Origin: an uncultured Rhodospirillales bacterium
Lineage (GTDB): Bacteria; Pseudomonadota; Alphaproteobacteria; RF32; CAG-239
NCBI GenBank assembly: GCA_902778645.1
Contig: CACYYO010000001.1
Location: forward strand, 2,951 to 66,950
Reading direction: 5' to 3'
Length of the DNA stretch: 64,000 bases
Below, in pieces: positions 15,718 to 63,698 of the stretch. Position numbers and translations under genes: made by a program. A model generated the notes under the pieces. That model did no database searches, was not told the DNA's origin, and was given only the letters and a program-made list of their open reading frames with translations. Position 1 is the first letter of the stretch, and the number at the start of each line of letters is the position of its first letter.

Positions 15718-17049
15718 TGCTTTAACAATTTCGGCAGTTACTTTTTGGGCATCTCCGAACAGCATAATTGTGTTGTCGGCATAAAAGAGAGGGTTATCAA
15801 TGCCGGAGTAGCCTGTTGCCAGCGAGCGTTTAACAACCAAAACCGTTTTAGCCAATGCGACATCGAGAATCGGCATTCCATATAATGGAGAAGTGTTGTC
15901 CGTTTTGGCCAGAGGGTTGGTAATGTCATTTGCGCCAATAACGTAAGCGACATCGGCGCTTGGGAATTCGTTGTTAATATCGTTGAGGCTGAAAATATTT
16001 TCAAAAGGGACATCAGCTTCTGCCAGTAAAACATTCATGTGTCCGGGCATGCGTCCGGCAACGGGATGAATGGCAAATTTGACGTCAACATGATATTTTT
16101 CCTGCAAGATTTTTGCCATTTGTTTGAGGGCATGTTGTGCCTGAGAAACGGCCATGCCATAGCCGGGAACAATGATTGCTTTGCGTGCGTTTTCAAGCAA
16201 AAAGGCAGCTTCAGGCGGGGTGCCGGTTTTGATAGGTTGAGAGATATCAGTTGAAATAGTGATTGAAGGTGAAGTAACAGGTGAAAATAAAACATTGATT
16301 AAGGAGCGATTCATTGCTCGACACATAATAAAAGACAGAATCGCACCACTCATACCTATTAGAGCGCCGGTAATAATCAGAAGTTGGTTGCTCAGGACAA
16401 AGCCAATAACGGCGGAATCAATGCCGGAAGCGGCGTTTAACAACGAAATAACTATCGGCATATCGGCACCACCGATTTTGAGTGTCATGCTGAGGCTAAG
16501 TACTCCGGCTAATACTGATAAAGTGATGAACTCGGTAGTGTTCGGATGCAAAGCATAATCAATAAGCGAAAGTATCATAATTACGCATAGCAAGGCGTTG
16601 AGACGGTTGCTGAAACATTTGAACGTTCCGTTTATTCTGCCTTGAAGCTTGGCAAAGGCAACAAAAGATCCTATAAATGTGAAAATCCCGAGGGCAGAAC
16701 CGATAGGGGTATCAAAAGGGTCTATTTTGTCTTCCAAAACCGCACAACAGGCTACCAGAAAAGCGGCTAATCCGCCCAGGCCGTTAAAGGCCGCCACCGT
16801 TTGCGGCAGACCGGTCATTTGCAAGTGTTGGGCAATGAAAATGCCAATCGCGGTGCCGATGACAATTCCAAGCAAGATGAGGAATCGGTGTTTTCCTAAA
16901 ATAAGAGCCAAGGTTAATGCCAAACATATCCCTAAAATTCCCAGTAAATTGCTTCGGTAAGCTGTGCGCGGAAAAGCTAATCCTCTTAAAGATAAAATGA
17001 ATAAAAGAGAAATGCCGAGATTAATTAAGGTCAAAAAGCTATTACTCAT
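15706..17049 (-). CDS. pntB: NAD(P) transhydrogenase subunit beta
   Basis: C-terminal dIII domain: PGYGMAVSQAQHAL...HPVAGRMPGHMNVLLAEADVP...GANDITNP. Confidence 0.95.
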   Translation of the reverse strand: MSNSFLTLINLGISLLFILSLRGLAFPRTAYRSNLLGILGICLALTLALILGKHRFLILLGIVIGTAIGIFIAQHLQMTGLPQTVAAFNGLGGLAAFLVACCAVLEDKIDPFDTPIGSALGIFTFIGSFVAFAKLQGRINGTFKCFSNRLNALLCVIMILSLIDYALHPNTTEFITLSVLAGVLSLSMTLKIGGADMPIVISLLNAASGIDSAVIGFVLSNQLLIITGALIGMSGAILSFIMCRAMNRSLINVLFSPVTSPSITISTDISQPIKTGTPPEAAFLLENARKAIIVPGYGMAVSQAQHALKQMAKILQEKYHVDVKFAIHPVAGRMPGHMNVLLAEADVPFENIFSLNDINNEFPSADVAYVIGANDITNPLAKTDNTSPLYGMPILDVALAKTVLVVKRSLATGYSGIDNPLFYADNTIMLFGDAQKVTAEIVKALEH

Positions 17050-21398: not shown

Positions 21399-21484
21399 TG
21401 GTGCGACCGAGAAGACTTGAACTTCCATGAACTTAGTTCATAACGACCTCAACGTTACGCGTCTACCAATTTCGCCACGGTCGC
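21399..21484 (-). tRNA. tRNA-Leu (anticodon GAG), class II with long variable arm, CCA encoded
   Basis: Hand-folded cloverleaf: acceptor GCGACCG/CGGTCGC; D-stem GCG/CGC; anticodon stem TAACG/CGTTA with loop TTGAGGT; variable arm GAAC-TAA-GTTC; T-arm GGAAG-TTCAAGT-CTTCT; then A-CCA. Confidence 0.9.
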
Positions 21485-27731: not shown

Positions 27732-27829
27732 CTTTGTTCCCAGTTCGTAAAATTATTCTTGCGCTTTAAGTTATATTATCTATATTCTTTTTCATCAAGT
27801 ATTATGTTTAACTTATGGAGGATAATTTT

Positions 27830-28192
27830 ATGGCAAATACATACCAAAAAGGGGATCACGATACTCGCCCGTGGGGAACATGGGAGGTTTTAGATGCCGG
27901 TGAAGGTTTTTGCGTTAAACGAATTAAAGTTTTGCCTCATAGCATGCTTTCTTTACAATCTCATAATTTTCGTTCAGAGCACTGGATTATCATTAAAGGA
28001 AAAGCCGTTGTTACTCTGGGAGATGAAAAGTTAAATAAAAAAATTAATGATGCTATTTATATTCCGGTGAAAACAAAGCATCGTATTCAGAATGATACGG
28101 AAACTGATATGGAATTTATTGAAATCCAGGCCGGAGAGAATCTGGACGAGGGGGATATTGTCCGCTATGAGGACATCTACGGCAGAGCATAA
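27830..28192 (+). CDS. cupin-domain protein (type II phosphomannose isomerase C-terminal-like)
   Basis: RPWGTWEVL..G..F.VKRI.V.P...LSLQSHNFRSEHWIII.G. I prefer the second ATG (27830), preceded by GGAGGA (the track start is at 27815). Confidence 0.75.
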   Translation: MANTYQKGDHDTRPWGTWEVLDAGEGFCVKRIKVLPHSMLSLQSHNFRSEHWIIIKGKAVVTLGDEKLNKKINDAIYIPVKTKHRIQNDTETDMEFIEIQAGENLDEGDIVRYEDIYGRA

Positions 28193-28194
28193 AA

Positions 28195-28412
28195 AAATGC
28201 GCAAGGTGAGTTTCTAGTGCAGATATTTCATAAATTATTCGGTCATGTACCTTCAAGTACACTCCCTTCATAATTTATTCAATATCTTACTATAAACATC
28301 ATCTATCGCATTTTTTGTGAGTTGCGGTAATTTTTTTCTCGACGCCTACTATTAGCCTCATTCTCCGAATTTTTTTAGATTGAATTGAAAACCAGGGCAG
28401 GTTTTGCACAGT
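28195..28412. repeat. long palindromic intergenic repeat, copy A (GTAC-N6-GTAC apex)
   Basis: Collinear with 33667-33893. In a gap-free hand alignment, 69 of 89 positions are identical between 28210-28298 and 33684-33772. The internal arms agatatttcataaattat / ataatttattcaatatct are near-complementary. Confidence 0.8.
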
Positions 28413-28442
28413 AAAAAAAGCACGGTTTCCCGCGCTTTTTTT
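28413..28442 (-). terminator. Rho-independent terminator after lepA
   Basis: The minus-strand RNA folds as AGCGCGG-GAAA-CCGUGCU (one G-U pair) followed by a U-tract. Confidence 0.7.
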
Positions 28443-30246
28443 AATTATCACCAATTCTTAAGGCTTCAATGAAGGCAGATTGCGGAACTTCAACTTTACC
28501 AAATTGACGCATTCTTTGTTTGCCCTTCTTTTGTTTATCGAGAAGTTTACGTTTACGAGTAACGTCACCGCCATAGCATTTGGCAGTTACATCTTTACGC
28601 AAAGCTGAGATTGTCTCTCTGGCGACAATACGTCCGCCGATGGCGGCTTGAATCGGAATTTTAAACAAGTGCCTCGGGATTAAATCTTTTAAGCGTTCGC
28701 AGATTTGGCGTCCTCTGGCTTCTGCCTCTAAACGGTGGCAGAGAAAAGCAAGTGCATCGACAGGCTCTTCATTAATCAGAATTTGCACTTTGACTAAATC
28801 GGAGGCGGCGTAACCGGTAATCTCATAGTCAAAACTGGCATAACCGCTGGTGATAGATTTCAGACGGTCATAGAAGTCAAACACAATTTCATTGAGCGGA
28901 ATTTTATAAACGACCATGGCGCGATTGCCGACATAGGTTAATTCTTCCTGCTCGCCTCGGCGTTCATTGCATAATTTCAAAACAGCGCCGAGATAAGTGT
29001 CCGGTACCATAATGGTTGCTTTAACCCAAGGTTCTTCAATAGATTGAATAGTGGTGATTTCCGGCATATCGGCAGGATTATGCAACATTATCTGTGAACC
29101 GTTCGTCAGATTGATTTTATAGGCGACAGACGGGGCGGTCGTGATTAAATCCAAATCAAACTCGCGGTTCAATCTCTCCTGAATAATTTCCATGTGCAAG
29201 AGTCCTAGAAATCCGCAACGGAATCCTAACCCTAAAGCCGCAGAATTTTCATTTTGATAATCAATACTGGCATCGTTTAATTTCAGTTTAGCCAAGGCAT
29301 CTTTGAGGCTATCGTACTGACTGCTGTCGACAGGAAAGATAGAACAGAAGACAACCGGAACAGAGGGCTTAAAACCTTTTAGCGGTTCAGCACATGGTGC
29401 TTTGTTATCAGTTAATGTATCACCGATGTGGCAGTCACTGACGCTTTTAATGCTGGCGGTGATAAAACCGACTTCACCGGGATAAAGGGCGTCAACATCT
29501 TGCATTTTAGGTGTGAAAATGCCGACTTTATCAATTTGATAAGTCATATTGTTCGACATCATGCGGATTTGTTGTTTTTTCTTCAAAACCCCGTCATGAA
29601 TGCGCACTAAAATAATAACTCCTAAATACGAATCGTACCAACTGTCAATTAACAAGGCTTTGAGCGGGGCGTTTTGTTCTCCTTTAGGAGCCGGTAAATA
29701 TTTGACAATACCCTCTAATAAATCATCGATACCAAGACCGCTTTTGCCGGAGGTTTCAACAGCATTTGACGTATCTAAGCCGATAACATCTTCTATTTGT
29801 TGTTTGACTTTTTCCGGTTCGGCAGAAGGCAGGTCAATTTTATTTAAGACGGGTAAAATTTCGTGGTCGTTGTCAAGAGCCAGGTAAACATTAGCTAACG
29901 TTTGCGCTTCAACCCCTTGAGTGGCATCGACCACCAGAACAGAGCCTTCGCATGAAGCCAGTGAACGTGAAACCTCATAAGAAAAGTCAACGTGTCCGGG
30001 GGTGTCAATCAGGTTTAATTGGTATGTTTTGCCGTCTTTTGCCGTATAATTCAAGCGGACGGTTTGGGCTTTGATGGTTATGCCACGCTCGCGTTCAATA
30101 TCCATCGAATCGAGAACTTGTTCTTGCATTTCTCGTTGTTGTAAGCCGCCGCAGCGTTCGATAATGCGGTCAGCAAGCGTCGATTTGCCGTGGTCAATAT
30201 GGGCAATAATGGCGAAATTGCGGATTAAACTTAATTCTGTTGACAT
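28441..30246 (-). CDS. lepA: translation elongation factor 4 (LepA)
   Basis: [33 protein letters not shown], and the LepA-specific C-terminal region. Confidence 0.97.
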
Positions 30247-32249: not shown

Positions 32250-32351
32250 AAGAGTAATCTAAAAAAAATATCTGTCAATTCTTATTTACTAAGTGATTTT
32301 TAATAAAATTTGATTATGATGTCGGCAAAGAGTTTTTTTTGTGAGGTTAAA

Positions 32352-33668
32352 ATGAAGAAATTTACCTATTTAATTGCTTTGGTTTTAGGTTTGTTTGTAA
32401 CACCTGCCCGAGCAGAATTACAAATTGATGTTAATGGTGCAATGCGTGATCCGATGCCGATTGCTTTTCCGGAAATTATCCATGACGGGTTTTGGATCGG
32501 ACAGCAGGCCTCTAAAATCAGGGATGTGGTTATTGCTGATTTGGAGCGTTCTGGTTTGTTCTCCATTTTGCCTGAAAACAGCTATATTCAAACCCTAAAA
32601 GATATTAATGAACAGCCGGCGTTTGTTGATTGGAAGGCAATTAATGCTCAGGCTTTGGTCCAAAGTGCCATTTCTGAGCCGGATGAAAATCATTTGAAAG
32701 TTGAGTTCCGCTTGTGGGACGTGTTTGCCGAAAATCAATTAGATGGTCGCTCTTTTACAACAACTAAGGCAAATTGGCGTCGGATTGCTCATATTATTGC
32801 CGATGCTATTTATGAGCGTTTAACCGGTGAAAAAGGGTATTTTGATACACGTGTTGTCTATGTTTCCGAAACAGGCTCGGCAACGAATCGTATTAAACGT
32901 TTGGCCATTATGGATCAAGATGGTGAGAATCACAGATATTTGACTTCGTCATCATCTATGGCTTTGACACCTCGTTTCTCGCCTAATATGCAAAAAGTTG
33001 TTTATATGTCTTATGCCGGGGAGACGCCGCGGGTTTATATCTTGGATATTGAATCCGGTCGTCAGGAATTGTTGGGTAATTTCCCGGGGATGACATTTGC
33101 ACCGCGTTTCTCTCCGGATGGTCGAAAGGTTGTTTTGAGTTATGAATCCGGTGGTAAGAGTAATATCTATGAAATGGATTTGGCAACACGGACGAAAAAG
33201 CAACTGACCTTTGGCAGTGCGATTGATACGTCACCGAGCTATTCTCCAGACGGATCGCAGATTGTCTTTAACTCTGACAGAGCCGGTTCTCAGCAGTTGT
33301 ATGTTATGAACCGTGACGGGTCGGATGTTAAACGTATTACTTATGGCGGTGGACGTTATGCAACACCGGTTTGGTCGCCGCGTGGTGATTATATTGCCTT
33401 TACAAAAATGGCAGGTGGTCAATTCTATATCGGTGTGATGTTCCCTGATGGCAGCGGTGAACGTTTGCTTGCCAGCGGTTGGCTGGTTGAAGGTCCGACA
33501 TGGTCGCCGAATGGTCGTGTCTTGATGTACTTCCGTCAAGAACCAGGAACTTCTCGCAGTAATGCTCCGGTAAAACTTTACTCTATTGATCTGACCGGGT
33601 ACAATGAGAGAATGATGGTGACACCGGGGGAGGGGTCGGATCCAGCATGGTCCCCACTACTCCCTTAA
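32352..33668 (+). CDS. tolB: Tol-Pal system beta-propeller protein TolB
   Basis: Signal peptide [21 protein letters not shown], a TolB N-terminal domain, and repeated P.FSPDG/..WSP propeller blades. The start is moved to 32352. Confidence 0.93.
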
Positions 33669-33893
33669 AGATGTGCAAGATGTGTTTCTAGTGCAGATAC
33701 TTGAAAAATTGCTAAGTCATGTACCTCTATGTACACTCCTGTCGCAATTTCTCAAGTATCCTGCTATAAACAACATCTATCCCATCTTTGTGAGAAGGGG
33801 TATTTTCTTGAGTTGTTTTTTTAGATTTATTTTCCGAATTTTTTATGAAAAAAATGCGCAAAATTGGAGATTAGGCAGATTTTTGCCAGTCTT
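33667..33893. repeat. long palindromic intergenic repeat, copy B (GTAC-N6-GTAC apex)
   Basis: It shares exact blocks with copy A: gtttctagtgcagata, gtcatgtacct, gtacactcc, ctataaaca, tttgtgag, tccgaatttttt. The arms agatacttgaaaaattgc / gcaatttctcaagtatc are near-complementary. Confidence 0.8.
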
Positions 33894-33897
33894 GTTT

Positions 33898-33934
33898 AAT
33901 AAAAAATCCTTGCTTTGTGAGCAAGGATTTTTTT
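33898..33934. terminator. bidirectional Rho-independent terminator (tolB / helicase-like gene)
   Basis: Stem atccttgct (33906-33914) pairs with agcaaggat (33920-33928), with flanking A- and T-tracts. Confidence 0.8.
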
Positions 33935-33935
33935 G

Positions 33936-34736
33936 TTATTCGTTGGCGATGATGCCGGCGTTTAATAAAAATCTCGGTGTTTTGCCATTGAATGAATTAT
34001 ATTTTTTCATCAAGGCAACAGCCTCTTTGTCTTCGACCTCAATGTGTTTGGCAGGGCGCGGACGTTTTTCTTTTTTCGTTTGGGATACCGGTTTGCTTTC
34101 GGTTGAGGCTTGTAACGCTTCCTGTTCTTTGTCTTTATTAACCTTGATTTCCTGCGGGGCTTTGAGAATCTTATCCAGGATATCCTGGGTTTCCTTGGAG
34201 CGACGATTGGTGTAAACAATATTTTGTTTATCAGATGGCAGCAATTCAAGAATCTTTTCGAGATTTTCAAGCTGCTTGTTCTTTTTAATCAGGTTAATGT
34301 CATCAACAACCAAGATGTTAATTTTAGATAAGTCAACACGTTCTTCCTTCACTAAGTCTACCAGCAGTTCGGGAGAACCGATGATGACGTTGGCCTCATT
34401 GTCAACATCTTCATCTTTGTCTTTGATCGTAGCCTCGTTGATTTCGTGATATTTGTTGAATATTGCCAACCGGTCCGAGACCACAACGGATTGATTGGAA
34501 TCCGGTGTGATAATAAGAATATTTTTTTTGTTGCTTTCCGGCGTTGAAATAATATCGATTAACGGAAAGACATAAGATGTTGTTTTTCCGCAACGTTGCG
34601 GGGCAATTGTGAAAACATCTTTTCCCTGTAAAATGGAAGGAATAACATCCGTTTGTACGGTGGTCGGCTCTTTAATACCGAACTCATCAATGGCTTGAAT
34701 GGTTTTAGCACTTAACCCTAATTCAGTAAAATTCAT
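33936..34736 (-). CDS. DEAD-box helicase-like protein, domain 1 only, with degenerate motifs
   Basis: A Q-motif region is present (FTELGL...PTTVQ). Motif I is APQRCGKTT, motif II is VVDD instead of DEAD, and motif III SAT is replaced. There is no domain 2 (no HRIGRTGR). The C-terminus is a basic tail. Confidence 0.6.
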   Translation of the reverse strand: MNFTELGLSAKTIQAIDEFGIKEPTTVQTDVIPSILQGKDVFTIAPQRCGKTTSYVFPLIDIISTPESNKKNILIITPDSNQSVVVSDRLAIFNKYHEINEATIKDKDEDVDNEANVIIGSPELLVDLVKEERVDLSKINILVVDDINLIKKNKQLENLEKILELLPSDKQNIVYTNRRSKETQDILDKILKAPQEIKVNKDKEQEALQASTESKPVSQTKKEKRPRPAKHIEVEDKEAVALMKKYNSFNGKTPRFLLNAGIIANE

Positions 34737-42041: not shown

Positions 42042-45000
42042 GTGAAAAAATTTATAATTATGGTTATCGGATTGGTTACTGTTGCCATTATTGCCGCTTC
42101 TATTTATGTGTCAACGATTGATTGGAACAAGCATAAAGGGGCGTTGTCTGCGCAGTTGGCAGAGATTACCGGTAAAAAAATATCCTTCAACGGACCGGTC
42201 AGTATGTCGGTATTTCCGATGCCGTATATCACAGCTAAAAATGTGGTTGTTTACAGCTCAACCAATCAGAATCCTGATAAACCTCTCATGAAAATAGATA
42301 ATTTAGTGGCCAGACTTTCTTTCTCGGCTTTGCTGGGGGGGAGTTTTGATGTCAAAATGATGTCGCTGGTTAAGCCTAAGGTTTTTATCGAGTATACAGA
42401 AAATGGTCTTAACTGGTTAGATGACGCTCAGACAAAAGACGATGTCGAGATGAAAGATGTTCATATTGCCTTGGATAGTGTTTTGCTTTCGGACGCCACA
42501 GTGCAAATTGTTGATGAACAACACAATATCAATACAACATTGGAAAATTTAAAAGCTGAGATTGTGGCAGATTCTTTGCACGGTCCATATCGTATTGATG
42601 GCAGCTATATGAAAGACAATAGTCCGCAGGGTTTTGCTATTTCGACCGGTAATTTATCTGATAGCTTTGCTTCGAATCTTAATTTTGTTTTGAGCCAGCC
42701 TTCTTCAGATACTTATATTCGTTTTGACGGAACCTTTTTGCTTAGTAATGAGGCCTTAAACGGTAATTTGATGATTGAGTCTAAGAAATTTAAGGAATTT
42801 TATGCCACAATGATTCCTTCGGCTCCTTTAGGGGATTACTGGGATGATAATTTAGAGGCTTCAATGGAACTCAAGGTTAATCAAACTCAGATGGAATTGG
42901 CTAACATTATCCTGAAGTATGGTAAAACGGCCGGTGCCGGCAATATCATTGTTCCGTTAAAGAGTAAAAGTTATGTTATCGGTGAAGATGATGACGCAAA
43001 AAGAGATATTACTCTTAAATTTGATATGACAGAGTGGGATTTGGAGCCTTTTGTTGCACTTATGAAAGAATATGTCAGAGAACAAATGGCAGAGGGGGCA
43101 ATCTATGATCCCCATATTCCGTTTGATATGAATGTTAATCTTACGGCATTAAAGGCTGAATATAATGATCAAATTATCAAAGATTTCAATCTCAAGATGA
43201 GCTTGCTTGATAATGTTTGGAATGTTACGGAGCTGAGCGGGCAATTCCCGGGAAATACACAAGTCAGCGGTGTCGGTAAAATATTTTCGGTAGAAGACGT
43301 CTTATCTTATACCGCAACTGTTGAAGCTGAAGCAGAAAACTTAAAAAAAGTGCTGGATTGGCTTGAAATTCCGGTAACGACAGTTGCTAATTCAACTTAT
43401 CAAAAATCGACATTAAATGCGTCAATTGTCGGTGATATGCGGGCTATTCAGGTTTCTCCGTTTACATTGTCTGTTGATAATACTGTTTTAAACGGACATT
43501 TTGGGGCTAAAAGAGGTCAGCCGAATCATTACGGTTTAGAGATTACAACGGATAATATCATTTTGGATAATTATCTGCCCAGAGTTTTGGTAGGGCATGA
43601 AGAGGATGCCTTGCAGATTATCTCTGATTTATGGGCAGCTACAGGATGGGCAAATGATGTTGATGTTGATTTTAAGCTGACAGCGGGGTTGTTGATTTAT
43701 GAAAAAATATCTTTTGAGAAATTGCAGCTGAGTGCGTCTTTGCAAAAAGGAATTTTGAATATTCAAAATTTAAATATAGAAGATGTTCTTAAGGCAAATG
43801 TGGCTGTTAATGGGGAAATCGGAGGCTTCGGTGATAAATTGAAGCTAAGCAACTTAAATTATAAAATAACAGTTGCGGATTTTGCACCTTGGATGGAAAA
43901 GTTTAAAATTGAGAATCCTGATATAAATCTTAATTTTTTCCAGCCATTTACATCAGAAGGTGTCGTCTCTATGAATACCGGAAGAATTTGGATTAAGGCA
44001 GATAATAGAAACGGAAATGTGGTGTCTTCTTATAATGGTCGTGTCAGTGAAGCCGATGCAACGTATAATCTGGAGGGCGATTTGCAGCTTAGGGCGCCGC
44101 AGATTTCTGATTTACTCAAAAACTTAAAAACGAAATATATCCCGCAAGATGATAAGCTTGGACGTTTGGCCTTAAAGGCGCATATTCTTGGCAGTTTAGA
44201 TAATTTTAAGCTTTCAGATATGGTTATGAGTATCGGTTCTAATATATTTCAGGGAACAATCGGAATTGATAAAATGAGGTCGGTTCCTTATATGGCGGCA
44301 AACTTAAAAATTAATCGATTTGAAGCAGATCGCTTTTTACCTAAAAATGAAAATAACGGAGTGTTGTTTGAAAAAGAGCAAACTGCCCAAAATGTTACTT
44401 TTTGGAGTAAGCCTTATTTAAGTGATAAGCCCTTTAATCTCTCTCAATTTGATAAGTTGCAATTTGCGTCTGATCTAGAAATTAATGAGTTATTGTTTAA
44501 AAATAAGTTGTTTAAAAATGTCAAAACAAAGTTTGAGAATCGGAATGGGGCGCTTTCTCTAATCGGTTTTAAGGCCGGCTATAATGATGGTGATGTTATG
44601 GCTAATTTAAAACTTAATCTTTCGGATGCGCCGCGCTTGAGTGGTGATGTCAGTATAACGAATCAAAAAATTTATGATATGGGATTAGTGGGTAGTGTAT
44701 ATGGGCTCAAATCCGGTGTCGTTGAAGTAAATGCTTCGCTAGACAGTTCGGCACATTCTCCTCGTGATATTATTGACCACTTTACAGGAACGGTCAATTT
44801 GAATATTAATAATCCTGTTGTGGTTGGTTGGGATTTTGACCCGATAGCAGATGATTTGCAGCTTAGAAAAATCAGTGATGGTCTGGTCTCTGTTTTGAAT
44901 GAGAATTTAAGAAAAGGAGAGACTACATTTAATAAGTTTAGCGGCAAAATCAGTTTTAAGGATGGTGAGTGGGCTATAGACAGAGCATCTTTCTTGTCTG

Positions 45001-58785: not shown

Positions 58786-60309
58786 ATGGAAAATATTGAA
58801 AATATGCCGAGACCTGAAATTGTGTTAGTTGCTGATACAGTTGCTCGTGAGAAAAATATTGATAAGGAAGATGTTTTTGTAGCAATGGAAGTTGCTATTC
58901 AGAAAGCTGCTCGCTCTAAATACGGCTTTGAGCATGATATCAGAGCCGTGATTGATCGTAAAACGGGGGCGATTAATTTGTCTCGGTATCGTGAGATTGT
59001 TGATGAAATTATTGAGGAAGATGATGAATCTCAGGCCTCTAAGATTTTGTTGGAAGATGCAAAAGCATATCGTAAAGATGCTAAAGTCGGTGAATATATT
59101 ATCGATACTCTTCCGCCGATTGATTTCGGACGTATTGCCGCTCAGACAGCTAAGCAGGTTATTATGCAAAAAGTTCGTGATGCAGAGCGTAATAAACAGT
59201 TTGAAGAATACCAAGAAAAAGTCGGCACCATCGTTAACGGAACGGTTAAAAGAATTGAGTTCGGTAATGTGGTTTTAGATATCGGCAAAGCCGAGGCTAT
59301 TTTGCGCCGTGATGAAATAATTCCGAGAGAGAAATTTAAGAATGGTGATCGTGTCCGTGCTTATGTTTTGGAAGTTCGTCGCGAAAACAAAGGTCCGCAA
59401 ATTTTCTTGTCTCGTACTTGTCCTGAATTTATGGCTAAGTTATTTACGCAAGAAGTTCCTGAGATTTATGATGGTATTGTTCAGATTATGGGTGTCGCTC
59501 GTGATCCGGGATCTAAGGCTAAGTTGGCCGTTAAGGCCAATGATATGACGGTTGATGCCGTCGGGGCTTGTGTCGGTTTGCGCGGTATTCGTGTTCAGGC
59601 CGTTGTTACCGAGTTGCAAGGTGAAAAAATTGATATCGTTCCTTATTCTGAAGATAAAGCTCAATATATCGTCAGTGCTTTGGCTCCCGCAGAGGTAACA
59701 AAAGTTGTTCTTGATGAAGAAAACAATCGTATTGAGGCGGTTGTTCCTCAGGAGCAATTTTCTATTGCAATCGGTCGTCGCGGTCAGAATGTTAAGTTGG
59801 CTTCTCAGTTGTTGGGGTGCGATATTGATGTTTTGACAGAAGAACAAGAGCAAGAACGTCGATCTAATGAAAATAAAGTTCGTTCACAGCGTTTCATCGA
59901 AGCATTAGACGTTGATGAAATGATTGCACATCTCCTGATTGCCGAAGGCTTTACGACTGTTGACGAAGTTGCCATGGTTGAGTTGTCTGAATTGGCAAGT
60001 ATTGAAGGTTTTGATGAAGATGTTGCAACGGAGTTACAGGCTCGTGCTAAGGCTTATGTTGAAAATCGCAACGCCGAGTTTGTTAAACAAAGTGAAACTT
60101 TGGGAATTGATGAACAGCTGAAAACAGTTGAGGGGTTGGATCAGGATATGATTTTAACTCTGGCTAATAAAGGTGTGAAAACTTTAGAAGATTTAGCTGA
60201 TTTGGCAGCTGATGAGTTAATGGAAATGTTAGGAGAGAATGTTCTTTCCGAAACAGAGGCGAATGCGGTTGTGATGAATGCGCGTCGTCAAGCCGGTTGG
60301 TTTGAGTAA
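58786..60309 (+). CDS. nusA: transcription termination/antitermination factor NusA
   Basis: S1 domain (GTIVNGTVKRIEFGNVVLDIG), KH domains (ACVGLRGIRVQAVVTELQGEKIDIV; IGRRGQNVKLASQL) and C-terminal HhH repeats. Confidence 0.97.
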   Translation: MENIENMPRPEIVLVADTVAREKNIDKEDVFVAMEVAIQKAARSKYGFEHDIRAVIDRKTGAINLSRYREIVDEIIEEDDESQASKILLEDAKAYRKDAKVGEYIIDTLPPIDFGRIAAQTAKQVIMQKVRDAERNKQFEEYQEKVGTIVNGTVKRIEFGNVVLDIGKAEAILRRDEIIPREKFKNGDRVRAYVLEVRRENKGPQIFLSRTCPEFMAKLFTQEVPEIYDGIVQIMGVARDPGSKAKLAVKANDMTVDAVGACVGLRGIRVQAVVTELQGEKIDIVPYSEDKAQYIVSALAPAEVTKVVLDEENNRIEAVVPQEQFSIAIGRRGQNVKLASQLLGCDIDVLTEEQEQERRSNENKVRSQRFIEALDVDEMIAHLLIAEGFTTVDEVAMVELSELASIEGFDEDVATELQARAKAYVENRNAEFVKQSETLGIDEQLKTVEGLDQDMILTLANKGVKTLEDLADLAADELMEMLGENVLSETEANAVVMNARRQAGWFE

Positions 60310-60332
60310 AATTTGCAAAAGAGACTTTATGT

Positions 60333-60438
60333 TGGCGCTTTTTTCGCTTAGGTACTTTTTTGTACACCGCGCTCAAAAAGCGCTCAACAGCAAGCCTCTT
60401 TATCAAATTTTATGAGGATATCTTTATCAAATTTTATG
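60333..60438. repeat. short palindromic repeat copy (GTAC-N6-GTAC apex) plus an 18-bp direct repeat in the nusA-ylxR spacer
   Basis: The sequence ttggcgcttttttcgcttagGTACttttttGTACaccgcgctcaaaaagcgctcaa has complementary outer arms. It is followed by tctttatcaaattttatg at 60397-60414 and again at 60421-60438. Confidence 0.7.
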
Positions 60439-61055: not shown

Positions 61056-63538
61056 TGACAGATGAAAAAGCAGGTAAAAAATTAACATTATCTACTAAGT
61101 CTACTCTGACACTCAAAAATTTGGGAGATCGGGCTGCTAAGTCTGACGGTAAAAAAGTTGTGCAGGTGGAAGTCCGCAAAAAAAGAGTTATTGCTCCGGT
61201 TGCCTCGGCAGAACCAAAGGTTCAAATAGATGAAGCAACAGCGCAAAAATTGAAATTGCTCGAAAAAGCTAAGGAGCACGAGGCTAAACGTCAAAAAGAA
61301 GAAGAAGAGAAAGAGCGTCTTCGTCAACAAGAAAGAGAACAAGAGGCTCTTGAGGCTAAAGAGAAAGCCGAGCGTGAGGAAGAAGTTCGGAGACAACAAG
61401 AGGCAAAGTCGCAAAAAGAATCTGCTCAAGTAGCTCAAAAGAGTCAAAAAACAGAAAAAGAAACCTCTTTCAGACAAGAAGAAAAAGTTTTTGTTAAGCC
61501 CAAAAAGTCAAAAGATTATGATGATGACGACGATGAAGATGAGGAGCGCTTCGATAAATCATCTAAAAAAGTTTTGAGTAAAGAAGAGACTTTTGAGCAA
61601 GAGCGCAAGAAAATTATGAAACGCAGCTTTGAGCCTCAGCGTCGCGGTGGTAAGCTCAACATGAACAGCCTGATGGGGAGCAGTGATGAAGATGATGATT
61701 ACGGGTTCGGTGCGCCTCGTCGTCGGTTTAAGAAAAAGCAACCTAAACCGGTTCAGGAGCAAGCGCCGCAAGAAAAAGTTATTAAAGAGGTTGTTATTCC
61801 TGAAATCATTACCGTTCAAGAGCTGGCAAATCGTATGGCAGAAAAGAGCGCCGTTGTTATCAAAAAATTAATGGCTCTCGGGGTTATGGCAACGATTAAT
61901 CAACCGATTGACGCGGATACCGCACAGATTGTCGTTGAGGAGTTAGGTCATAAGTTTAAGAGAATTGCCGATAGTGATGTTGAATTAACCTTAAAAGGTG
62001 ATGAGGATACAGAGAAAGATTTGTTGCCCCGCCCGCCGGTTGTTACGGTTATGGGACACGTTGACCATGGTAAAACCTCTTTGCTTGATGCTCTGCGTGA
62101 GACAAATGTTGCTGCACGTGAGGCCGGTGGTATTACCCAACATATCGGTGCTTATCAAATTGAAACTAAAGACGGGCAAAAGATTACCTTTATTGATACG
62201 CCGGGACACGAAGCGTTTTCAGAAATGCGTGCTCGTGGTGCAAAAGTAACAGATATTGTTGTTTTGGTCGTGGCCGCTAACGATGGTATTATGCCGCAAA
62301 CAGTTGAGGCTATTCGTCACGCACAAGCAGCTGAAGTTCCTATTGTGGTGGCTATTAACAAGATTGATTTGCCCGGTGCCGACCCGATGCGCGTCAAGAC
62401 AGAACTCCTTAATCATGGGATTGCCGTTGAGGAAATGGGTGGAGAATCCCTGTGTGCGGAAGTTTCTGCCAAGAAGCGTATCAATATTGATAAATTGCTT
62501 GAAGCTATTTTGTTGCAGGCAGAAATTTTGGATCTGAAAGCAAATCCGAATCGTATGGCAGAGGGTGCCGTTGTTGAGGCTAAGATGGAAAAAGGTCGCG
62601 GTTCGGTTGCAACAGTGTTGGTTCAGAAAGGAACATTACATGTCGGTGATATTATTATTGCCGGTAAAGAATGGGGGCATGTTCGTGCGCTTTTGAATGA
62701 GAATGGGCATAAAGTTCATGAAGCCGGTCCGGCAACACCTGTGGAAGTCTTGGGGTTGCAGGGAACGCCGGCGGCCGGTGATAATTTTGCGGTGGCCGTT
62801 GATGAAAACCAAGCGCGTGAAATTACAAGCTATCGTATTCGTAAAGAACGTGATGCTAAGTTGGTAAAAAGTGCTAAATCGGCGATGGAACAAATGCTCG
62901 ATAAAATTAAATCCGGTGAGATTAAACATTTGCCGATTATTATCAAAGCAGATGTTCAAGGTTCTATTGAGGCAATTGAGGGGACGCTGAATAAATTCTC
63001 GAATAATGAGGTCAGTGTGCAAATTTTGCACTCGGCGGTCGGTCCGATTTCCGAATCTGATGTGACGCTGGCTAAGGCATCTAATGCGTTTATTATCGGT
63101 TTTAATGTTCGCGCTATCCCGCAGGCTCGTGATATGGCACGTCGAGATGGTATAGACATTCGCTATTATTCAATTATCTATGATGTTGCTGATGATGTGA
63201 AGAAAGCTTTGGAAGGTATGCTGTCTCCGGAACTGAAAGAAAAGATTTTAGGTTATGCAGAAATTCGTTCTGTCTTTAATATCACCGGTGTCGGTCGTGT
63301 GGCCGGCTGTATGGTGACAGAGGGTCTGGTTAAGCGCGGTTGTAAAGTTCGGTTGCTTCGTGACAACGTTGTTATTCATGACGGAAGTCTTGGACAACTA
63401 AAACGCTTTAAGGATGATGTTAAGGAAGTTAAAGACGGTTATGAGTGCGGTATGAGTTTTGAGAATTATAATGACATTCAGGTCGGAGATTCGATAGAGT
63501 GTTATGAGATTGAAACTATCGCCGCTAAGCTTGATTAA
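61055..63538 (+). CDS. infB: translation initiation factor IF-2
   Basis: E/K-rich N-terminal region, a G domain ([32 protein letters not shown]) and the C-terminal domains. Its start overlaps the upstream stop by 1 nt. Confidence 0.97.
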
Positions 63539-63661
63539 TGGATTATTAGGGCGTTGTCTGCAGGTCGAAAGTGTCCTCACGTACTTTTTTGTACGCTCCG
63601 GTACTTTCGCCTTTGACGCCTACTACTAATCTCATTAATCAAGATTAATGGATTATTAGGG
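63533..63661. repeat. short palindromic repeat copy (GTAC-N6-GTAC apex) bracketed by a 19-bp direct duplication in the infB-rbfA spacer
   Basis: gattaatggattattaggg occurs at 63533-63551 and at 63643-63661. Between the two copies lies ...gtcgaaagtgtcctcacGTACttttttGTACgctccggtactttcgcctttgacgcctactactaatctcatt... The gacgcctacta..ctcatt module recurs at 28341-28362. Confidence 0.8.
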
Positions 63662-63698
63662 TGTTTCGTATTTTCTTATTACAAAGAAAGATAAAAAA

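Follow-up and report, generated by a model that had tools for sequence, protein, structure and literature searches.

Two palindromic repeats in one alphaproteobacterial window

The stretch of DNA analyzed here (the window, 64,000 nucleotides), which carries genes for GapR, TolB, and PtsP and comes from an alphaproteobacterial MAG, raises the question of why two of its intergenic gaps, one behind a cupin gene and one behind tolB, hold closely similar palindromic sequences. The initial annotation had described these as copies A and B of a single ~220-nt element. A gap-free alignment of 28210–28298 with 33684–33772 gave the 69 of 89 identities that it had counted, where 2000 random 89-mers drawn from the window averaged 23.8 and never exceeded 38, and the six shared blocks and every arm string that it quoted were found where it had placed them. 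Region 28193–28412 is indeed collinear with 33667–33893, and each copy opens with a ~124-nt imperfect palindrome centered on GTAC-N6-GTAC. A repeat search matched 28193–28315 to 33667–33789 at 78%, copies A and B being 78.4% identical, and an nhmmer profile of the pair recovered only A and B as full copies in the window (E ~1e-67), plus a partial match at 63585. As a whole, these observations are best explained, with a probability that we put at roughly 0.85, by A and B being MITE copies that landed on the TA of stop codons and belong to a family of ~105–150-bp palindromes, probably kin to ERIC. The features on which the analysis is based are as follows.

27815–28192: cupin (ManC C-terminal-like) ORF, upstream of copy A
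28190–28191, + strand: left TA of the copy A target duplication, within the cupin stop codon TAA (28190–28192)
28193–28316, + strand: copy A, complete element (covariance model R1, 112.2 bits, E 3e-26), consisting of left arm, apex GG-TCA-TGTAC-CTTCAA-GTACA-CTC-CC, and right arm; hairpin 28195–28313
28317–28375, + strand: second element, 3′ half only, fused to copy A at a T-run, with the 3′ half of a degenerate apex (GTGAGTTGC), a right arm (..GACGCCTACTATTAGCCTCATTCTCCGAATTTTTT), and the right terminus
28376–28377, + strand: right TA of the copy A target duplication (sequence)
28378–28411, + strand: flank between the copy A element and the terminator, its first part native and common to relatives
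28413–28442, no strand: bidirectional intrinsic-terminator-like hairpin with A-run, GC stem, and T-run (fold)
32310–33668: TolB ORF, upstream of copy B
33666–33667, + strand: left TA of the copy B target duplication, within the tolB stop codon TAA (33666–33668)
33667–33790, + strand: copy B, complete element (R1, 109.6 bits); hairpin 33669–33786
33791–33843, + strand: 3′ half of a second element behind copy B, homologous to 28317–28375 and ending ..TTTTCCGAATTTTTT (repeat, 71%)
33844–33845, + strand: right TA of the copy B target duplication (sequence)
33846–33893, + strand: left arm from another element, truncated (TGAAAAAAATGCGCAAAATTGGAGATTAGGCAGATTTTTGCC..)
33901–33933, no strand: bidirectional terminator-like hairpin (terminator scan, fold), outside the element
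60307–60413, + strand: fourth, degenerate member (R1, 41.1 bits, E 9e-8), beginning on the nusA stop codon at 60307–60309 (ORF 58786–60309), with apex AGGTAC-TTTTTT-GTACACCG
63525–63649, + strand: third member, of a different subfamily (R1, 89.2 bits, E 3e-20), with apex TCACGTAC-TTTTTT-GTACGCTCC, then a second copy of the left-arm start at 63636–63665 (direct repeat)

Boundaries and composite structure of copies A and B

Although the similarity over ~220 nt is real, the unit is not a single element. It is a composite of a complete ~124-nt element, part of a second, and a flank or left-arm remnant. The insertion boundaries are the TA pairs at 28190–28191 and 28376–28377 for copy A and at 33666–33667 and 33844–33845 for copy B. 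Placement of the left TA of copy A relies on the sequence itself, on an empty site in one relative (L122), where GTT TAG is followed by the terminator, and on a simple insertion in another (L121), whose copy at the same site is 88.7% identical to copy A. On the right, the flank beyond the TA (GATTGAATTGA..) matches the post-TA flank of L121 (TGATTGCTTAGTTGA..). The left boundary of copy B is supported by the tolB 3′ sites of L121 and L122, both of which are empty.

L121 lacks the half-element at 28317–28375, its insertion at the orthologous site running straight into the flank GATTG.., and 28311–28362 is 73% identical to the right half of the third member (63585–63636). Beyond it, CCAGGGCAGGTTTTGCAC within 28378–28411 weakly resembles the left arm of the family. 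Behind copy B, the first ~16 nt of 33846–33893 match the L121 left arm exactly (AAAATGCGCAAAATGAG..) and are similar to that of a further locus (L041). The elements accumulate in tandem and are eroded by deletion, which accounts for the half-element tails of A and B. The terminator-like hairpin at 28413–28442 lies outside the element, is common to the cupin gene and lepA, whose stop codon it overlaps, and is found in relatives both with and without the element; that at 33901–33933 is common to tolB and a convergent DEAD-box ORF.

Folding and covariation of the arms

Copies A and B each fold into a ~119-nt hairpin (28195–28313 and 33669–33786), and on both strands the z scores relative to dinucleotide-shuffled sequences lie between −7.3 and −10.1 (A, −9.5 to −9.8; B, −7.3 and −10.1). 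The compensatory arm changes reported between A and B are genuine and generalize across 31 related copies, in which double changes occur in 33 of 39 pairs. Paired cells amounted to 93.0% versus 38–49% when the partners were slid, and double-change cells numbered 289 versus 51–114 in the slid controls, values matched by none of 500 shuffles. The outermost helix is 89% paired and also covaries.

The initial annotation concluded that a hairpin, either RNA or cruciform DNA, is being maintained. The covariation is strong, and that conclusion is only partly decided: the wobble counts, 27 G-U-type cells against 35 of A-C type, reveal no strand preference. The arms therefore act as a strand-neutral DNA palindrome, and the strand-specific parts are the apex and the orientation of insertion only. 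Arm covariation alone is no proof of selection for a hairpin, to which symmetric transposase sites or intrastrand palindrome repair could contribute.

A structured stretch with a conserved unpaired motif, lying between a stop codon and a terminator, might also represent independent small-RNA genes or, alternatively, a conserved riboswitch-like or leader structure found twice by chance. We consider this highly improbable. At the gathering threshold, Rfam returned only a tRNA from the window and no match at the elements in 18 related loci, and a permissive search of 28100–28500 gave only a look-alike of a plant miRNA hairpin (30.8 bits, against a threshold of 96.2 bits). A promoter scan found no σ70 consensus promoter before copy A or copy B, orthologous sites in close relatives are without the stretch, and element copies number in the hundreds in unrelated contexts, as judged from the apex scan and the model matches described below. 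Two further candidates were discarded: a σ54-like GGCAG-N-TTGC noticed by eye 3′ of both copies, whose spacing is wrong, and a six-codon ORF (MRKVSF in A, MCKMCF in B), for which relatives such as L006 and L114 show no conservation.

A dispersed and mobile family

Covariance model R1 identified four members in the window, all on the + strand, including two diverged copies of which the HMM of the pair had given no more than the partial match at 63585, as well as 85 matches, many in tandem, in 45 related stretches (438 kb). A 23.6-bit match at 44305–44403 was rejected as it lies inside a 1384-amino acid ORF. The units measure 107–126 nt in the window and ~120–150 nt in other lineages, and copies A and B have no coding capacity beyond chance mini-ORFs. 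Their terminal inverted repeats pair a left AAAAAATGCGCAAGG.. with a right ..CTATCGCATTTTTT, a second example being CAGTTTGCGGAAAAAC with GTTTTTCCGCAAACTG. TA is found on both sides of copy A, copy B, and the L121 copy, the duplication in the window copies being TA only, and TA also flanks members of the Brucella-group, Beta/Gamma, Holosporales, and ME2006 families. Within one genome and family (ND5), the best resolved and the one on which the 4-bp YTAR duplication rests, YTAR stands on both sides of the copies, and in 7 of 11 copies the two sides have the same Y and R bases.

Occupancy differs even among close relatives. L122, with 94% LepA identity, is empty both in the cupin–lepA gap and at the tolB 3′ end; of two relatives at 97–98%, L121 carries an insertion behind the cupin gene alone and L120 one behind tolB. 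The dispersed palindromic family proposed at the outset is thus borne out by the four window members, the 85 model matches, and the empty orthologous sites, which is the opposite of two lone copies held at orthologous positions in relatives. In its size and lack of coding capacity, terminal inverted repeats, target duplication, and dispersed polymorphic copies, this is a MITE family, and of the labels first suggested MITE fits, with TA/YTAR duplications and sharp ends. It is multi-copy in this gut-type alphaproteobacterium and its relatives and, apart from a probable link to ERIC, an ordinary one.

The label REP, in contrast, does not fit. Long intergenic multi-copy hairpins whose fold is stabler on one strand would be expected if paired short REPs formed a REPIN spread by a RAYT through single-stranded DNA, and the elements share with REP, BIME, and REPIN sequences an intergenic, palindromic, multi-copy character and a location within transcription units. 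REP units, however, are 20–40 nt long with a conserved head, make no target duplication, and have a tyrosine (HUH) transposase, none of which applies to the window family. Its unit is 120–180 nt, no GTAG-type short REP or head is present, TA/YTAR duplications flank the copies where REPINs produce none, the most conserved part is the apex rather than two arm-borne REP units, and no recurrent tyrosine-transposase-like ORF was found in the loci examined. An origin from REPs is accordingly scarcely credible. More generally, the search for a cognate transposase in the loci examined (~0.9 Mb) yielded no IS-sized autonomous insertion sequence with the family termini, and no recurrent transposase-like ORF emerged when the 885 long ORFs of all these loci were clustered. 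The apex motif was absent from viral contigs, which had been considered as phage vectors.

Position and orientation at stop codons

All four window members either start on the stop codon of their upstream gene (cupin, tolB, nusA, and infB, respectively, for A, B, the fourth, and the third) or overlap it. At infB the left arm of the third member encodes the last four codons and the stop, the ORF ending at 63538. Where a long ORF ends 30–80 nt ahead of the apex, the two are co-oriented in 53 cases and convergent in 6; in low-GC genomes the counts are 19 and 0, the stop codons being TAA (15), TAG (3), and TGA (1). The orientation of an element follows the gene whose stop codon it abuts.

This bias (53 versus 6, and 19 versus 0 in low-GC genomes), an apex that is invariant while arms and termini diverge, covariation of the whole stem, tolerance of copies within the nusA-infB-rbfA operon, and the published effects of ERIC on mRNA (PMC2229807) could be features of a domesticated cis-acting RNA in 3′ UTRs or operon spacers, whose apex hairpin regulates mRNA decay, processing, or termination and whose mobility is ancient or extinct. 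Such a domesticated RNA overlaps with the MITE explanation, the one point of difference being why the copies are kept. The sites empty in a 94% relative and differently occupied among relatives at 97–98% argue against it, as do truncated and half copies and tandem piles that resemble selfish turnover, the similar numbers of G-U-type (27) and A-C-type (35) cells, which favor neither RNA strand in the arms, and the separate canonical terminators 3′ of A and B. We regard it as unlikely, if still credible.

Those dedicated terminators also bear on the idea of a mobile intrinsic terminator (SPRITE-like), in which a palindrome with an A-run and a T-run spreads as a bidirectional Rho-independent terminator. 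The hairpin of the AT-rich subfamily is bracketed by TAAAAA.. and ..TTTTTA, and A and B occupy convergent gaps, as such an element might. Two window copies, however, lie inside nusA-infB-rbfA, an operon that strong termination would harm. In GC-rich subfamilies the stem has no terminal T-run beside it, and a simple terminator scan around A and B did not call the elements themselves. With terminators of their own standing 3′ of both copies, this alternative is improbable.

The conserved apex

Conservation in the family peaks at the apex, not in the termini or arms. The apex motif TCATGTACCT-N4-GTACACTC occurs at more than 116 sites in public genomes, where ~17 would be expected by chance; the scan was for the exact pattern, the count is a lower bound, and nearly all of the sites listed are at the centers of palindromes. 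Apex matches in Firmicutes coding regions (L049, L071, and L089, probably also L064, L069, and L095) were chance-like and were excluded. R1 matches without the exact motif retain TCA-yGTAC..GTACr-CTC, with stem variants that are compensatory. Palindromes from Alpha-, Beta-, and Gammaproteobacteria repeatedly show the arrangement TCA-[5-bp stem]-loop-[stem]-CTC(C), which is kept even though their arms and termini have diverged. Read on the opposite strand, the apex is GAG..TGA, with a tandem G.A plus a G.U pair. Carriers of the apex family include Brucella, Ochrobactrum, Mesorhizobium, Rhizobiaceae, Sphingobium, Shinella, and Agrobacterium, and further members were found in Betaproteobacteria, Xanthomonadales, and Chlorobium MAGs.

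Relationship to ERIC

ERIC, also named IRU or RU-1, has an apex that reads, in the sense of the upstream gene, CCCCAG-TCA-CTTAC-TTAT-GTAAG-CTC-CTGGGG. That of the window family, GG-TCA-TGTAC-CTNNNN-GTACA-CTC-CC, is identical in layout; both outer pairs of the apex stem have changed relative to ERIC, each in a compensatory manner. The E. coli ERIC copy examined has TA flanks, abuts the ybhI stop codon, and is oriented as in the window family. In the 2005 work of De Gregorio, ERIC is said to lie often just past or overlapping stop codons, in a preferred orientation. ERIC is not known to have a transposase partner, and it and Correia are both classed as MITEs even so; the window family resembles ERIC in this respect, no partner having been found in the ~0.9 Mb of loci examined. 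As an element, ERIC is a 127-bp MITE, intergenic and co-transcribed, with terminal inverted repeats, TA termini, and target duplication, which at gene 3′ ends has orientation-dependent, RNase E-linked effects on the upstream mRNA (PMC2229807, PMC10969869, PMC3184786). The window elements match its structural description, being ~125-nt imperfect palindromes with TA termini and duplication in intergenic positions, putatively within transcription units. Their host ranges differ, ERIC belonging to Enterobacteriaceae and Vibrionaceae and the window family to Alphaproteobacteria and beyond.

When R1 was run on 50 kb of E. coli DNA (100 kb searched), ERIC was the top hit at 18.0 bits, the next scoring 12.8, with a marginal E value of 0.063. 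A gammaproteobacterial element (L111) used as an nhmmer query on the same 50 kb also ranked ERIC first (E 0.7), with a local score of 18.5 against 15.0 for the next, and it aligns with ERIC end to end, with the common termini ATATACTC..GAGTATA. Other comparisons did not detect a relationship. Model R2, built from Beta/Gamma/other members with 14 aligned pairs only, did not recover ERIC in 50 kb, a search of all loci with ERIC alone as the nhmmer query gave no significant match (E 6–9), and pairwise comparison of ERIC with copy A was at noise level (z −0.1), the arms not being recognizably similar. Against the ERIC consensus core (GTGAATCCCCAGGAGCTTACATAAGTAAGTGACTGGGGTGAGCG), the window family agrees in apex layout, with two compensatory pair changes.

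Collectively, these sequence comparisons suggest that the window family and enterobacterial ERIC probably belong to one Proteobacteria-wide superfamily. A broader version, plausible and put forward tentatively, would unite the gut alphaproteobacterial repeats, those of Holosporales, Rickettsiales, and Finniella, the Brucella and rhizobial repeats (possibly Bru-RS and RIME), those of Sideroxydans, Xanthomonadales, and Chlorobium, and E. coli ERIC in a single ancient MITE superfamily, in which a 20-nt asymmetric apex, TCA-[yKTAC]-loop-[GTAMr]-CTC(C), would have stayed fixed while arms and termini diverged beyond recognition. If true, this would imply that a conserved trans-acting partner or an RNA function recognizes the apex instead of the termini, which would explain the one-way orientation on stop codons.

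Comparison with other repeat families

Correia/NEMIS of Neisseria and RUP of pneumococci are, like the window family, 100–160 bp long with terminal inverted repeats and TA duplication, and clustering and nesting of copies are common to Correia, RUP, and the window family. Repeats of this class form long RNA hairpins, are co-transcribed with their neighbors, and have RNase-mediated effects (PMC2229807, PMC10969869). In Correia and RUP the terminal repeats are the conserved part, whereas in the window family it is the apex. Correia, compared here by description, has an IHF site and promoters, neither of which was seen in the window copies, and RUP has a candidate transposase (IS630-Spn1), whereas none was found for the window family in the loci examined.

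Among Alphaproteobacteria, Bru-RS1/Bru-RS2 represent dispersed palindromic repeats of Brucella, 103–106 bp long, which are hot spots for IS711, an insertion sequence that duplicates TA at YTAR (PMC3163539, PMC2266754). This is the type of target that flanks the window-family elements; the Brucella-group members found here measure ~145 bp between flanking TA against the 103–106 bp of Bru-RS, the two being compared by description. RIME, the Rhizobium-specific intergenic mosaic elements, can be likened to the family by host only, Rhizobiaceae carrying apex-family members. The Rickettsia palindromic elements (RPE) are 105–146 bp long, some with TA termini (PMC2229807), and the infB copy that supplies C-terminal codons recalls their in-frame insertions. 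By description, RPEs are typically intragenic, in frame, and Rickettsia-specific, whereas members of the window family lie almost all just past a stop codon.

Proposed mechanism and implications

Under the MITE explanation, a DDE-type transposase encoded elsewhere, IS630/Tc1-like or IS5-like (users of TA and YTAR), would cut at TA. Stop codons may be favored or tolerated as targets because duplication of the TA would regenerate the stop codon. Once inserted, the element would be co-transcribed as part of the 3′ UTR or, in nusA-infB-rbfA, as an operon spacer, and the transcribed long hairpin may modulate the stability or processing of the mRNA 3′ end, as has been reported for Yersinia ERIC. The asymmetric apex, which is invariant, could serve a trans-acting protein, either the transposase or a host factor, as its recognition site, or could act as an RNA motif, and its orientation may be selected relative to the upstream gene.

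For genome annotation, the elements account for the long “conserved” hairpins seen between genes of gut and endosymbiont-like Alphaproteobacteria. They risk being miscalled as genes, one public ORF of 199 amino acids being a run of tandem copies, and can rewrite protein C termini, as at the infB stop codon. If the apex truly ties the family to ERIC, the agent that moves ERIC, its conservation, and its orientation at stop codons are long-standing questions that become testable across many lineages by way of their natural sequence variation. The covariation also picks out nucleotides for mutation, namely the unpaired TCA and CTC and the 5-bp stem.

Anatomy of copies A and B

Comparison of two intergenic repeats in this alphaproteobacterial metagenome-assembled genome (G+C ~41%), copy A in the cupin/lepA gap and copy B 3′ of tolB, revealed 69 identical positions in a gap-free alignment of 89 (28210-28298 against 33684-33772), as the initial annotation had counted, where random 89-mers of the window share 23.8 on average and 38 at most. 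The sequence blocks and arm strings quoted in that annotation were all found in place. A repeat search returned 78% identity between 28193-28315 and 33667-33789, and a MAFFT alignment joins 28185-28420 to 33660-33900. Each copy starts 1-3 nt behind the stop codon of a gene on the + strand and is followed on its 3′ side by a separate bidirectional terminator, common to the convergent gene (lepA for copy A, a DEAD-box ORF for copy B). The first ~119 nt of the copies form an imperfect long hairpin, with z of -7.3 to -10.1 on either strand. The collinearity of the ~220-bp repeat stands, but it is not a single unit: a complete element is joined to the 3′ half of another.

Elements and upstream genes in the window (R1, covariance model; L121, a relative)
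27815-28192, + strand: cupin/ManC-C-like ORF, upstream of copy A
28190-91 to 28376-77, + strand: cupin-site insert, from TA (within the stop codon) to TA, from sequence and comparison with L121
28193-28316, + strand: copy A, complete element (R1, 112.2 bits; upstream gene cupin)
28317-28375, + strand: 3′ half of a second element behind copy A, from its match to 63585-63636
32310-33668, + strand: TolB, upstream of copy B
33667-33790 plus 33791-33843, + strand: copy B composite, TA at 33666-67 and 33844-45; 33667-33790 is a member (R1, 109.6 bits; upstream gene tolB)
33846-33893, + strand: truncated left arm 3′ of the copy B composite, from sequence and alignment
60307-60413, + strand: member (R1, 41.1 bits; upstream gene nusA)
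63525-63649, + strand: member (R1, 89.2 bits; upstream gene infB)

The flank following 28376-77 (GATTG..) continues as in L121. The half-element at 28317-28375 consists of a degenerate apex half and a right arm, which match 63585-63636, a member's right half, at 73% identity; it meets copy A at a T-run. Tandem arrays and truncated neighbouring elements are frequent in relatives. The composites may have formed by repeated insertion at a TA adjoining an existing end, with later deletions between T-runs or homologous ends; the A/B composite either moved as one unit or arose twice. The DEAD-box helicase ORF (33936-34736, − strand) encodes just 266 aa, a DEAD domain without the C-terminal helicase domain; the short form also occurs in L121 (268 aa), and the ORF could represent a gene that is split or truncated.

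Covariation of the hairpin and the invariant apex

The mirrored arm changes described for copies A and B recur throughout A2, an alignment of 31 gut-alphaproteobacterial copies, in which RNAalifold predicted 39 pairs, 33 of them with compensatory double changes. Under this structure 93.0% of cells were paired, compared with 69.7% after shuffling and 38-49% with partners slid by 1-3 columns; double-change cells numbered 289 against 51-114 in the slid controls, and the observed covariation values were reached by none of 500 shuffles. The covariation fits a maintained hairpin. No single RNA strand is favoured in its arms: G-U-type and A-C-type cells are about equal (27 and 35), so that the arms resemble a palindrome in DNA, or a hairpin formed by either strand. 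The apex is asymmetric and invariant, with a 5-bp stem between unpaired TCA and CTC(C). Its consensus TCA-nGTAC..GTACn-CT persists in 44 R1 matches lacking the exact search motif, and compensatory variants include TCAC-GTAC..GTAC-GCTC, CCTAC/GTAGG, and TTTAC/GTAAA. Read from the opposite strand, it is GAG..TGA, with tandem G.A and a G.U pair, and consequently that strand folds more stably. The apex may be recognised by a protein, or be active as an RNA motif.

Further members in the window

An unfiltered search of the window with R1, built from A2, revealed four members, always on the + strand, two of them beyond A and B. The member at 60307-60413 begins at the nusA stop codon, and the left arm of that at 63525-63649 holds the last four codons and stop of infB (ORF end 63538). 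Both palindromes lie inside the normally single operon nusA - small ORF - infB - rbfA, a position that speaks against strong termination by the hairpin; the two would have to be read through, or serve only as attenuators. The left-arm start of the infB member recurs directly 3′ of its right arm (63526-63555 vs 63636-63665; 87%, 21-30 nt), as either the displaced original infB end or a truncated neighbouring element. The window has a sole Rfam match at gathering threshold, a tRNA gene (21402-21484, − strand) that has a long variable arm.

Ends, duplications and empty sites

Aligned copies of one genome have sharp ends. In the MAG ND5_Bin_71 the unit CAGT..ACTG has YTAR at both sides, and for 7 of its 11 copies the left and right Y and R bases agree, indicating that 4 bp are duplicated. 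Two further genomes have units between TA and TA, and the Brucella-group and Beta/Gamma families likewise have TA flanks. Orthologous sites were compared across a graded series of LepA relatives.

Orthologous sites in the window and relatives L120, L121, and L122
L122 (LepA 94%): cupin/lepA gap empty, GTT-TAG and terminator, 76 nt; tolB 3′ site empty, 61-nt gap
L121 (LepA 97%): cupin/lepA gap filled by a simple element of 117 nt, on the stop codon of cupin; tolB 3′ site empty
L120 (LepA 98%): other genes after lepA, gap not comparable; different member at the tolB 3′ site
Window (LepA 100%): cupin/lepA gap filled, copy A; tolB 3′ site filled, copy B

The L121 element is flanked by TTAA and TTAT, and its 88.7% identity to copy A indicates that the two are orthologous; copy B and the L120 copy share 65% only. 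A fixed pair of copies at orthologous sites, the alternative raised initially, does not agree with the empty sites of L122 and the different filling of L121 and L120, from which it follows that the elements are dispersed and polymorphic. Together with the sharp ends and TA/YTAR flanks, the empty sites in close relatives support the MITE label, and the element is an ERIC-like MITE, with terminal repeats, duplications, polymorphism, and tandem piling. The original observation is confirmed and its interpretation supported by the four members, the covariation, and the polymorphic sites. The suggested search for a cognate transposase found no partner in ~0.9 Mb of loci; mobilisation could occur in trans, by a putative DDE transposase cutting at TA.

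Model matches per 21.8-kb relative locus numbered seven in L123, three in L120, one in L121, and zero in L122, with four in the 64-kb window; this uneven density suggests recent bursts or losses. In L123 (91% LepA identity, 1.88-Mb contig), a public 199-aa ORF between mreC and mreD (16163-16762), without a Pfam match, overlaps a tandem run of five R1 matches (16227-16735) and is probably a false gene call.

Spread of the family

A scan for the apex motif TCATGTACCT-N4-GTACACTC, with one genome per species, revealed more than 116 stretches among the matches listed, where ~17 are expected by chance (our estimate from collection size); with the four window members, this substantiates a dispersed family. 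Nearly all listed matches are the centre of a 100-180-nt palindrome whose arms are lineage-specific in sequence and keep complementarity. Carriers include gut-type Alphaproteobacteria MAGs, Holosporales, Rickettsiales, Finniella, Micavibrio, Brucella/Ochrobactrum, Mesorhizobium, Rhizobiaceae, Sideroxydans, Rhodanobacter/Lysobacterales, Halieaceae, and Chlorobium MAGs; Rhizobiales-type members also occur on replicons of Sphingobium, Shinella, Agrobacterium, and Phyllobacterium. An Rfam search of the elements returned no covering family, and the motif was not found in viral contigs. A few matches in coding regions of Firmicutes look like chance.

Across 32 plasmid records the Rhizobiales-type member gave 63 matches, all unannotated and most of them on large non-mobilizable replicons (plasmids or chromids of Sphingobium, Shinella, Agrobacterium/Allorhizobium, Phyllobacterium, Ensifer, and Bosea), so that cultured, tractable hosts exist for experiments. 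Several members lie immediately 3′ of a tRNA gene array in a 'Clostridia' MAG (BRZ_KS__bin88, L076 7101-7914). Either this contig is alphaproteobacterial, from the same project on gut samples, and was mis-binned, or it records a transfer beyond the Proteobacteria. Compared with its sister copies L010 and L058, a Sideroxydans member (L039 6371-6500) has ~45 nt inserted in the right arm.

Stop codons and orientation

For 121 apex matches, long ORFs ending 30-80 nt from the apex were counted. A co-oriented ORF ended upstream in 53, coinciding with the left foot of the element, with no symmetric counterpart: a convergent ORF alone was found in 6, both in 7, and neither in 55. Below 45% G+C, the count was 19 co-oriented against 0 convergent, with stops TAA (15), TAG (3), and TGA (1). 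The TAA/TAG preference and survival of the stop codon after insertion are explained by the TA/YTAR target; the orientation bias is left unexplained by it, since the termini are symmetric. De Gregorio et al. in 2005 reportedly found that ERICs adjoining stop codons favour one orientation. The element would be co-transcribed with the upstream gene and may affect the fate of its mRNA 3′ end.

Probable relation to ERIC

The MITE ERIC has TA termini and a target duplication, is co-transcribed with adjoining genes, and at gene 3′ ends influences upstream mRNA in an orientation-dependent manner linked to RNase E (PMC2229807, PMC10969869, PMC3184786). The E. coli copy examined (127 nt, TA..TA flanks) adjoins the ybhI stop codon, and its apex in the ybhI sense, CCCCAG-TCA-CTTAC-TTAT-GTAAG-CTC-CTGGGG, has the layout of the window family with two compensatory stem changes, within the family's own apex variation. 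When 50 kb of E. coli DNA was searched on both strands with R1, trained on alphaproteobacterial copies alone, ERIC ranked first at 18.0 bits (E 0.063; runner-up 12.8), matched over its full length on the gene-sense strand. When an element with the exact apex motif from an uncultured gammaproteobacterium (L111) was the query against this E. coli stretch, ERIC again came first (E 0.7 by nhmmer; local score 18.5, runner-up 15.0); the two align end to end with common termini ATATACTC..GAGTATA, at z 8 against mononucleotide shuffles. Direct comparison of ERIC with copy A stayed at noise level, ERIC as nhmmer query had no significant match among all loci, and a second, poorly aligned model failed to recover it. 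Common ancestry of the family with ERIC is rated as likely, at a probability of roughly 0.55.

A text search of incomplete literature found no paper on such a superfamily outside Gammaproteobacteria. MITEs are already known and this element is one more, ERIC-like; covariation of its hairpin, its place at stop codons, the bias in its orientation, and the conserved apex are observed features, and the sole part of possible specialist interest is the invariant apex across proteobacterial classes with the stop-codon-anchored orientation. The Rhizobiales members may be Bru-RS1/2 and RIME.
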